Assembly (NCBI GenBank): GCA_010405405.1
Contig: MU004230.1
Span: 3,630,627 to 3,688,741, forward strand
DNA from: Microthyrium microscopicum
Lineage: Eukaryota
DNA length: 58,115 bases
Direction: 5' to 3'
Positions 15,225 through 17,463 of the stretch are shown here, piece after piece. Each line of letters opens with the position of its first letter. Within the stretch, counting starts at the first letter, position 1. A program made the translations under genes and the position numbers. Under the pieces are notes generated by a model. The model was not told the origin of the DNA. It searched no databases and saw only the letters and a list, made by a program, of their open reading frames with translations.

Positions 15225-15997
15225 ATGGCTCCTAAAATTGCCATTGTCTACGTAGGGATCTCCTCGAACTAAGAATCCCAACAACTCTATCGCTAACAAC
15301 AGCTCTAGTACTCGATGTATGGCCACATCAAGCAAATGGCCGAAGCAGAGAAGAAAGGTATCGAGAAAGCTGGAGGAACAGTAACTCTATACCAGTACGC
15401 TCGACATATCCGCTTCGTGCTGAGCTGAATGATTGACGGTGTCTTAGAGTCGAAGAGACGCTTCCCCAAGAAGTATTGACAAAGATGCACGCCCCTGCAC
15501 AAGACAGCTCAATCAAAATTCTAAGCGACCCCAATGAGCTCCTCCAGTATGATGCATTTCTTCTCGGAATCCCAACTCGCTACGGCAACATGCCAGCACA
15601 GTGGAAGACCTTCTGGGACAAAACAGGAGGCATCTGGGGAAGCGGAGGCTACTGGGGCAAACATGCCGGCCTCTTCATCAGCACTGGATCTCCGGGTGGT
15701 GGACAGGAGAGCACTGCTCTCGCCATGATGAGCACCCTTACTCATCACGGAATCATTTACGTTCCGCTCGGATACGCAAAGACATTTGCGCAGGTCACCA
15801 ACTTGTCCGAGGTTCATGGTGGATCACCTTGGGGAGCTGGAACCTTTGCTGTAAGTGCATGAACTCCGCTATGTGTATCCTAGCTAATGAATGAATAGGG
15901 TGGGGATGGATCTAGACAGCCAACTCCTTTGGAGCTTGAGATTGCGGAGCTCCAGGGCGAGGCATTCTACAACACTGTTGCTAAGGCTCACCCATGA
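15225..15997 (+). CDS. PST2: Flavodoxin-like NAD(P)H:quinone oxidoreductase (WrbA/Pst2/Ycp4 family)
   Basis: [62 protein letters not shown]; introns 15252-15308, 15395-15447 and 15851-15898; TGA 15995-15997. Confidence 0.95.
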
Positions 15998-16144
15998 CTA
16001 GATGACAAGAAAGTAGAACCCAACTCGAGCTCGAATGGACAGCAAGATCAAAAAGTTACAAGAGTTATGGAACCGAAAGATGAAGAAACGACAAAAAAAG
16101 AAAAGGGGTTGTGTGGCCTGCCGATAAAGTGCTCGATCATGTGA
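15995..16144 (+). other. Putative stop-codon readthrough extension ending in CaaX (CSIM)
   Basis: TGA CTA G context, then open in-frame LDDKKVEPNSSSNGQQDQKVTRVMEPKDEETTKKEKGLCGLPIKCSIM and TGA at 16142-16144. Confidence 0.8.
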
Positions 16145-17463
16145 ACACAATCGTTTAGCATGCAAGAAAATGAATAGGCCTTACTGAGATCTAAGCCGTG
16201 TGTTATATACTGATACCGAAGTCTGAATCTATAATTGCCAAACGTGCAAGTGCCCGGACCTGCTGGGAAAACATGAACTACAATCGCATCAACAGACGAG
16301 AGACTTGCTAGATTTCGACCAGTCCTTTGAGATTAGAAATTCCGAACTGCTCGTCATTGGCTGTCAGATCATGCAATTGATACCCAGGGCTCCTTCGGAA
16401 AACCTGGAATGAAGCTTTAATGATCCAACGTTGATCGCTCATTCTCAATTAGACTCGGAAGATGATTCTGAATCCATTCGCTGGGTGAGGAACGGGCGGA
16501 CGGTTAGCTTCAAAGTGTTTTCTAGACGGTACGGGAGATGATGACGAACCAATGGCCAAATACCGTCAATTCGCCAGTCTAAGGAGGTATTCCATTACTC
16601 GTTCTATCTGAATGGTCCTTTTATTGGAGCTTTTCCCATAACCGGTCAATCTTGAAGGTCAAAAATACGTGGGACACGTGCAAACTTGAAACGGACTGCT
16701 CAGGCTGTGAACAGAAGCTTTTTTGTAGCCATCAAGAGCTTAAGCTATTTGTTTATTGCTTACAGCAAATGTGGATCATGAGACGGAACACGGCCAAGAG
16801 ATGGCTACCAAAATCAAGATGTTATCGGTTATGGTCGGGGAGTACTGGCGCTGGGTTTGCGCAATATTTCACAACAAAGAGCAGAATCACGTTTGGTTAG
16901 GCGAGCAGATAGGAAAGAAGCGAGATAGAAGATGGACGATGAATTTGGCAAGGACTGTTCTCGATTTCCCTGTTCACATTTCCGATTTCAAGGTCTTTTC
17001 GTCCCAAATTAAACCAGCTGGTTCTTCACCATGACGCCAAATCGACTGACGTAAATATCTTGATGGCATGCGCCAGGGCGATAATGATATTTTGCAAATC
17101 GTGTGTTAATGACGCAAGAATCTGACCTAATGGTTGTCAATGGCTGTAGGCCTGGTCTGCATGTTCAGTGTGTGTTCACTGTTGACCTAGAAGTGAGTGT
17201 ATGAGACCCAATTTTACAGCTTTTATACGATTTGATTTTGCATTATTCAACCCTGCCCGGTTTCTACTTTCTAGAGATCCATTAAGATATGAACCCGTGG
17301 ACGATAGACGATAATGAAACGTCAAGTGTAAAATTCCAGGTGTCTCACAACTACACCATTAATAACCAATAGGTGCCATAAAAATAGTAGGCAGTAAAGA
17401 GGATGAAAGACAAGAAACAGATATCATAATCCCCAAGGCAACCCCAACTCCCTCGAGACCCAT

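Follow-up and report, generated by a model that had tools for sequence, protein, structure and literature searches.

A quinone reductase gene whose frame stays open behind its stop codon

We analyzed a stretch of 58,115 nucleotides from Microthyrium microscopicum (GenBank assembly GCA_010405405.1, contig MU004230.1, positions 3,630,627 to 3,688,741; hereafter the window), in which a four-exon gene on the plus strand, with its ATG at 15225, encodes a flavodoxin-like quinone reductase of the WrbA/Pst2 type. An earlier note on this DNA had proposed that readthrough of the stop codon of this gene adds a lipid-anchored tail to the enzyme. The introns (15252-15308, 15395-15447, and 15851-15898), each bounded by GT..AG, were placed by spliced RNA contigs. 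Exon 1 (15225..15251) is supported by the sequence, by the RNA joint 15251/15309 in runs X2 and X3, and by agreement with the annotated protein P0004. Exon 2 (15309..15394) is delimited by joints 15251/15309 and 15394/15448 with GT..AG borders. The main part of the flavodoxin-like (FMN_red) domain lies in exon 3 (15448..15850), as indicated by its translation (P0002), Pfam, and RNA joints, and exon 4 (15899..15994) provides the final 32 codons of a 204-residue short isoform, in accordance with translation, P0004, and joint 15850/15899. Exon 3 matches the Pfam families FMN_red (PF03358, 8.1e-08, 32.4 bits against a cutoff of 24) and Flavodoxin_2 (PF02525, 2.2e-06, 28 bits against a cutoff of 27), and a protein search with the window's reductase returned 6271 homologues at E <= 1e-30. 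The core of an orthologue folds as a flavodoxin-like alpha/beta domain in a predicted structure, and family membership suggests flavin mononucleotide (FMN)-dependent NAD(P)H:quinone reductase activity. The annotated product P0004, named "minor allergen Alt a 7 [Microthyrium microscopicum]" by NCBI, has 204 residues and stops at the TGA at 15995-15997; most of the best 120 annotated homologues listed have 201-208 residues.

The annotated open reading frame (ORF) ends GCT AAG GCT CAC CCA TGA (TGA at 15995-15997), corresponding to residues ...TVAKAHP, and the next bases are CTAG. Past this first TGA the frame remains open for 48 codons (15998-16141: LDDKKVEPNSSSNGQQDQKVTRVMEPKDEETTKKEKGLCGLPIKCSIM) and is closed by a second TGA at 16142-16144, the putative terminator of a long isoform. 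The candidate leaky stop and its context, TGA CTA GAT GAC (15995..16006), can be compared with the family consensus TGA CTR SAT GG described below. Behind it lies a variable hydrophilic linker of 38 codons (15998..16111), which becomes rich in lysine and glutamate towards its end and has homologous counterparts in relatives. The linker is followed by the conserved terminal motif CGLPIKCSIM (16112..16141), which combines an upstream cysteine, a candidate for palmitoylation, with a C-a-a-X (CaaX) box, CSIM, at 16130-16141. The extension thus terminates in ...KGLCGLPIKCSIM (also given as ...KKEKGLCGLPIKCSIM) and contains exactly two cysteines, the second of them at position -4 and accompanied by an aliphatic residue at a2. 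In all of these respects (the KAHP-TGA-CTAG end, the 48 open codons, the extra cysteine, and the C-terminal CaaX box), the sequence agrees with what the earlier note had described. Since the TGA at 15995-15997 is present in both the genome and the RNA contigs, there is no uninterrupted ORF of the kind represented by the yeast paralogue Ycp4 at this locus.

How often such an arrangement arises by accident can be estimated from the window itself. Of its 5664 stop-to-stop intervals, 559 have at least 48 codons, and 17 of these end in CxxX and 5 in Cx[ILVM]X; on these counts, open frames like this one, taken singly, are expected by accident a few times per fungal genome. The 58-kb window contains 40 TGA-CT sites preceded by at least 30 open codons, and a CaaX ending follows at this site only, with no second case among the 40. 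It is the conservation in relatives, rather than the single case, that by our comparison places the arrangement far beyond chance.

RNA contigs carry the stop codon and the extension in one unbroken message

A contig from run X2 covers 15609-15850 joined to 15899-16155 with 0 differences from the genome, so that intron 3 is spliced while the TGA, the extension, and the second stop are present without a break. The RNA contigs over the gene, which may miss rare spliced isoforms, contain the three intron joints only, none of them near the stop. The mature mRNA therefore retains the stop and the whole extension. We counted runs X1, X2, and X3 as one source. A poly(A) site ahead of 16144, which the earlier note had named as a finding that would undo its reading, receives no support: the X2 contig continues to 16155, where it ends, and word depth in run X1 falls after ~16150-16200, although contigs of this type cannot place a poly(A) site. 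Comparable molecules were found in relatives, with 23 orthologous contigs of 1001-1807 nucleotides carrying ATG, TGA, extension, and stop in one frame, plus 26-888 nucleotides beyond. We take these 23 contigs as transcripts because they are free of the introns that the window's gene has. A soil metatranscriptome, run X4, covers only 15980-16228 with 4 differences; it was attributed to a relative and not used.

Two further features of the RNA contigs deserve mention. A run of seven A residues within the extension (16086-16092) is one A longer in six X1 contigs, with 3450 of 77818 word depth, and in the only X3 contig that spans it; the extra A would shift the frame before the CaaX box and most likely reflects homopolymer slippage in sequencing or transcription. 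Separately, a low-depth contig (335, against tens of thousands over the gene) extends from 16123 to beyond 16700, and may represent a form with a longer 3' untranslated region (UTR), a neighboring or antisense transcript, or DNA carry-over.

The first stop, its context, and the extension are conserved among orthologous loci

We compared the window with 80 orthologous loci from metagenome contigs, of which 79 have a readable stop and 70 are distinct after exact duplicates are merged. In 46 of the 70 distinct loci, the frame continues past a TGA for at least 40 codons and ends in C-a-a-X. The conservation of stop context, open frame, and terminal CaaX box for which the earlier note had proposed a test was thereby borne out, with TGA-CTG occurring beside TGA-CTA. 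The presence of the extension differs with the stop codon and the bases behind it. It is present in 42 of 44 distinct loci reading TGA-CT (among the remaining two, L057 runs off its contig and L015 has only 15 codons), in 3 of 4 reading TGA-AC (L032 runs off its contig), and in the one locus reading TGA-TC, and it is absent from all 5 loci with TGA in another context. As a negative control, none of the 16 distinct loci ending in TAA (11 loci) or TAG (5 loci) has an in-frame extension. L015 has its stop at 685 and reads TGA CTAGATGGA like the others, and its frame is shut after 15 codons with no tail motif within 500 nucleotides in any frame; this locus may represent a lineage loss of the extension or an assembly error.

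For the 46 extension-bearing loci together with the window (n = 47), extensions range from 44 to 100 codons (median, 57), with a strongly divergent middle part in which the frame is always kept. The first stop is TGA in 47 of 47 sequences and the second is mixed (TGA in 18, TAG in 17, and TAA in 12); judged by this comparison, the first stop is itself under selection and the second is unconstrained. TGA-CT occurs in 43 of the 47, and the consensus TGA CTR SAT GG summarizes the following positions: C at +1 (43), T at +2 (43), A or G at +3 (31 and 16), G or C at +4 (27 and 16), A at +5 (41), T at +6 (37), G at +7 (46), and G at +8 (36). The first codon of the extension is CTA in 31 sequences and CTG in 12, whereas CTC, CTT, TTA, and TTG never occur. 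Because only these two leucine codons are used, the constraint at this codon appears to act at the level of the RNA, not of the encoded residue.

We then considered whether the extension evolves as coding sequence. The ratio of nonsynonymous to synonymous substitution rates (dN/dS), computed by the Nei-Gojobori method (NG86), is below 1 in the extension in all 33 pairs with unsaturated dS (33 of 47 pairs were measurable, and pairs are not independent), ranging from 0.10 to 0.85 and mostly between 0.1 and 0.4, alongside core values of 0.02-0.30. Extension dN reaches 0.6 between loci. By this measure the extension is evolving under purifying selection, a protein-coding signature. The six best hits fetched from 1.84 billion searched representatives provide independent gene calls. 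Five of them have W-L where the stop would be and finish with the tail motif, as if these genes had been called under a code with TGA as tryptophan, and three hits among the representatives align across the whole extension, with E down to 3.4e-13. A search for the extension with the readthrough protein of locus L014 gave one weak match (E 4.2e-3) and was uninformative.

The taxonomic range can be given approximately, from the closest match of each locus among 51 named proteins. For readthrough-type loci this match falls in Dothideomycetes (Plenodomus, Aaosphaeria, and Neofusicoccum), Eurotiales (Penicillium), and Sordariomycetes (Colletotrichum and Fusarium, at 91%); loci with a splice donor at the stop, described below, are nearest to Sordariomycetes, and several tail-less loci are nearest to a basidiomycete.

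The extension ends in a conserved two-cysteine motif

The family tail can be written (E)GPCGLPxKC-a-a-X. All 47 sequences contain exactly two cysteines, six residues apart in 43, and the second cysteine is at position -4 in all 47, with isoleucine (27) or valine (20) at a2. The X residue is L in 21 sequences, M in 11, A in 4, Q, S, and V in 3 each, and I in 2. Methionine, serine, glutamine, alanine, and leucine at X fit the textbook rule for prenyltransferase substrates; valine and isoleucine (5 of 47) are less typical. Structure prediction for the L014 orthologue points to a disordered linker ahead of the motif: residues 206-250 score below 50 in the predicted local distance difference test (pLDDT), and the core is modeled with confidence. 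Loci L022, L067, and L077/L078 have divergent tails (...SSDKFCGLNCIVA, ...SSDKFCGVKCVIV, and ...SGSCLPKGCTVI) with a shorter cysteine spacing of 4 or 5 residues; these tails still follow TGA-CTAGA and end in C-a-a-X.

Some relatives would reach the same tail by splicing

Six distinct loci with a TAA stop (L001, L030, L034, L039, L045, and L079) have an ORF for CGLPxKCaaX downstream, in another frame or behind further stops. All six read TTCG/GTGCGTAA, where the slash marks the exon border, so that a 5' splice donor encloses the TAA. Behind it come a GCTAAY branch site and an acceptor, 55-140 nucleotides downstream, that restores the frame. The splice-type set includes L030/L031 and L039/L040, and positions 769-901 of L001 provide an example of the stop region. 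In these relatives, a transcript that keeps the intron would encode the short form, and a spliced one the long form. Intermediate forms also occur (L018/L023, L027, L032, L033, L038, and L049), in which GGTGCG-TGA comprises both a donor and a TGA stop. Five of these, L018, L027, L033, L038, and L049, are extension-bearing TGA loci, and, like the truncated L032, they contain an in-frame candidate intron of 63-72 nucleotides; readthrough or splicing would both give a CaaX-tailed protein. As read from these loci, most lineages would reach the family's shared alternative C terminus by readthrough, and the others would reach it by retaining or splicing an intron.

The tail also appears in annotated proteins. 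Three Penicillium proteins (P0041, P0113, and P0117; 249-256 residues) and a Sporothrix protein (266 residues) have tails ending EGPCGLPKKCTIQ, EGPCGLPKNCTIQ, EGPCGLPRKCTIL, and GGPCGLPAKCVVQ, sharing the motif of the window's LCGLPIKCSIM. In P0041, P0113, P0117, and P0133, 3-4 residues around the stop position are missing relative to the Penicillium-like loci L021, L043, and L058, which read TGA-CTR. Either these four proteins reflect a real stop loss, giving a constitutive long form, or their fusion is an effect of gene modeling.

Readthrough as the preferred explanation

Taking these observations together, we think it likely that programmed UGA readthrough produces a minor, prenylated, membrane-tethered isoform beside the soluble enzyme from one mRNA. 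Most ribosomes would terminate at the UGA at 15995 and release the 204-residue soluble enzyme, while a minority would decode this UGA, in its UGA-CUA-G context, by a near-cognate tRNA and add 48 residues comprising a disordered hydrophilic linker, a basic patch, and CGLPIKCSIM. The cysteine of CSIM would be prenylated (methionine at X points to a farnesyl group), the -SIM residues cleaved off, and the cysteine methylated, and we regard the cysteine six residues upstream of it as a likely palmitoylation site. A flexible tether would then hold the long isoform at a membrane, the site at which flavodoxin-like proteins are proposed to maintain ubiquinone in its reduced form and to curb lipid peroxidation. 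These enzymes are oligomeric, so anchoring a small number of subunits could keep whole oligomers at the membrane. Readthrough itself, its rate, the residue inserted at UGA, both lipid modifications, and the target membrane are elements that we infer.

Several points weigh against this interpretation. Translation beyond the first stop is deduced from the sequence patterns above. Folding of 15980-16130 revealed no stimulatory RNA structure after the stop (z = 0.23 against shuffles), and for this reason the readthrough rate may not exceed the few percent that the motif usually gives by itself. The recoding signal is probably confined to the short linear context. Runs X2 and X3 differ from X1 in organism label and are identical to it in sequence at low depth, making their independence from X1 doubtful. 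The locus counts, for which only exact duplicates were merged, are not phylogenetically independent. The window's own tail has leucine before the first cysteine where 43 of the 47 sequences have proline, and six loci have an acidic a1 residue (CDIM, CEIM, and CEVM), which is unusual in textbook CaaX boxes. Finally, readthrough is not the sole route in the family: the six TAA loci can reach the tail only by splicing, the five intermediate TGA loci with an extension have a donor over the stop, and P0041, P0113, P0117, and P0133, seen as predicted proteins only, have the tail with no intervening stop.

Other explanations compete with readthrough. If the extension of the window's gene were reached by stop-removing alternative splicing, it would resemble the six TAA relatives with the TTCG/GTGCGTAA donor, the five TGA loci with the same donor, and the annotated Sporothrix eucalyptigena protein P0102, which fuses ...ATIQG straight to a tail ending CGLPAKCVVQ. 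In the window, however, no GT donor lies at or near the stop (gctcacccaTGActagat), and the only in-frame candidate introns reuse the donor of intron 3 and would delete the last 32 core residues. The RNA contigs have no joint near the stop, and one is unbroken across 15899-16155. A donor at the stop is absent from 42 of the 47 sequences, including the window, and in 40 the first 200 nucleotides contain no GCTAAY branch site; moreover, conservation extends to the frame and to the codons directly behind the stop (L-D/H-G), neither of which an intron would require. We consider splicing very unlikely as the route in the window's gene. The earlier note had named splicing as an alternative that would overturn its reading, and this concern has no support for the window's gene, with its unbroken RNA contig, but has substance for some relatives, which appear to splice out the stop.

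A different objection accepts readthrough but takes the CGLPxKCxxx tail to be a two-cysteine redox or metal site, or some other sorting or turnover signal. GPCGLP is indeed conserved beyond the usual need of a palmitoylation site, the two cysteines are invariable and mostly six residues apart, and the acidic a1 residues, together with the five loci with V or I at X, fit prenylation less well. Nevertheless, the second cysteine never departs from its place four residues from the end, and a2 is occupied by I or V without exception; a1 and X vary, apparently inside the set accepted by farnesyltransferase or geranylgeranyltransferase I. A basic patch precedes the motif, and the related yeast protein Ycp4, which has a CAAX-ended extension, is reported to be palmitoylated. 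A function other than lipidation is, in our assessment, unlikely. The suggestion that the open frame is an untranslated relic of a longer ancestral gene, or a chance ORF in the 3' UTR, could appeal to the annotation, which stops at the TGA, and to the few single ORFs of at least 48 codons ending in Cx[ILVM]X that are expected per genome. It must nonetheless account for 46 of 70 distinct loci that retain the frame, the tail motif, and the TGA despite linker divergence and length change, for dN/dS below 1 in every measurable pair, and for a uniform first stop next to a mixed second stop; an extension dN of up to 0.6 argues against near-identical strains as the source of this agreement. We give the relic or chance reading hardly any credence. 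Selenocysteine insertion at the UGA was rejected, since fungi lack the machinery according to a passage in PMC4207609, as was reinitiation on the extension, there being no conserved ATG and the extensions beginning L-D/H-G.

For the family as a whole, we lean, with less assurance than for the window, toward an ancient two-isoform gene: the Pezizomycotina-wide "Alt a 7" family, the main flavodoxin-like quinone reductase there, would append a disordered tether with a dual-lipidation motif, CGLPxK-CaaX, by UGA-CU readthrough or, in some lineages, by splicing at a stop-containing donor. A tunable minority of anchored subunits would keep the oligomeric enzyme at the membrane, where it would regenerate ubiquinol to counter lipid peroxidation.

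Comparison with known systems

Passages in Stiebler et al. 2014 (PMC4207609) report that UGA CU(A)(G) suffices for readthrough in Ustilago maydis and in HeLa cells and that UAA or UAG reduces it. Both the window's TGA CTA G and the family consensus match this element. The same paper, in a passage on UGA-C readthrough, speculates that it responds to oxygen through ribosomal prolyl hydroxylation; if so, oxygen could set how much of an antioxidant enzyme is recruited to the membrane, which is speculation on our part as well. The recoding mechanism is already known, and the present case is well supported by comparative and RNA evidence, from which its protein-level outcome is deduced. In full-text literature, mostly from outside subscription journals, we found nothing linking translational readthrough to Pst2, Ycp4, WrbA, or Alt a 7, nor any description of a fungal flavodoxin-like protein that gains a CaaX tail through readthrough or alternative splicing. 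One co-occurrence of terms, in PMC5159543, concerns transcriptional interference in fission yeast, judging by the title and abstract. A conserved isoform of an abundant family of stress enzymes and allergens would be missing from databases, because genome annotations of these fungi end the protein at the TGA.

The earlier note had suggested that readthrough leading to prenylation might be undescribed. As a general statement this needs correcting: readthrough extensions with a predicted prenylation signal are listed for Drosophila Syx17 (PMC3840789, Table 2) and for Arabidopsis MT1C (preprint 10.1101/2021.11.09.467898), and a 2016 review gives only "a potential prenylation signal" (PMC4973966). 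For the enzymes considered here, no report emerged from the literature described above. What Syx17 and MT1C share with the window's gene is a readthrough extension ending in a predicted CaaX-type signal. They are, however, single-species predictor hits from ribosome-profiling screens, with signals that are predicted only, whereas here the signal, the stop, and the context are conserved over many divergent fungal lineages that include a splice-based alternative. Conservation of stop, context, and tail over very divergent linkers is at a level rare for a recoding candidate, and a tail that can be reached either by readthrough or by intron retention offers a natural experiment in the evolution of dual-isoform genes.

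Palmitoylation of Ycp4 was reportedly described by Roth et al. in 2006. Ycp4 of Saccharomyces cerevisiae has 49 extra residues and is reported as palmitoylated in passages of two citing papers (PMC7943015 and 10.1101/2023.04.27.538084). The ~90-residue extension of Candida albicans Ycp4 ends in a CAAX box, as stated in part of PMC4556627, which agrees with the description of yeast Ycp4 in the earlier note. The same source places C. albicans flavodoxin-like proteins at the plasma membrane, where, in the passage concerned, they are proposed to reduce ubiquinone against lipid peroxidation. Ycp4 belongs to the same enzyme family as the window's reductase, and in yeasts, as proposed here, short forms (Pst2) exist beside the long one. 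We liken the window's tail to that of Ycp4 by published descriptions of the latter. Yeasts encode the long and the short protein in two genes, and the core of the long one passes into its tail without a stop; in the window, one gene would make both. A passage in the 2023 preprint (10.1101/2023.04.27.538084) states that the mechanism recruiting yeast flavodoxin-like proteins to the plasma membrane and eisosomes is unknown; the tail described here offers a concrete candidate answer.

Two further systems resemble the proposed recoding. In hepatitis delta virus, removal of a stop adds a short extension with a farnesylated CXXX box to the delta antigen, and the resulting large delta antigen has a changed role. 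In that viral protein, RNA editing changes an amber codon and so does away with the stop, whereas here a cellular enzyme would be extended by ribosomal readthrough. Cryptic peroxisomal targeting in fungi and animals, in which peroxisomal targeting signals of type 1 (PTS1) are appended by UGA-CU readthrough or alternative splicing, was treated by Stiebler et al. 2014 and is said to have been described by Freitag et al. in 2012, a study that PMC3840789 cites. That system uses the same recoding signal and likewise yields, from one mRNA, a major short form and a minor, re-targeted, extended form of a metabolic enzyme. It also relies on readthrough or on a stop-containing intron depending on the species, as do the TGA-CT and GTGCGTAA loci of the present family. 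The differences lie in the enzyme family and in the signal, which here is a CaaX motif on a tether of 44-100 residues instead of a PTS1 tripeptide, and in the proposed destination, which is a membrane surface rather than the peroxisomal matrix. If our reading of the family is correct, protein prenylation that depends on readthrough would here have its first well-supported natural case. Functional readthrough in fungi would then serve lipid anchoring as well as peroxisomal targeting, and the yeast gene pair Pst2/Ycp4 would have a single-gene counterpart.

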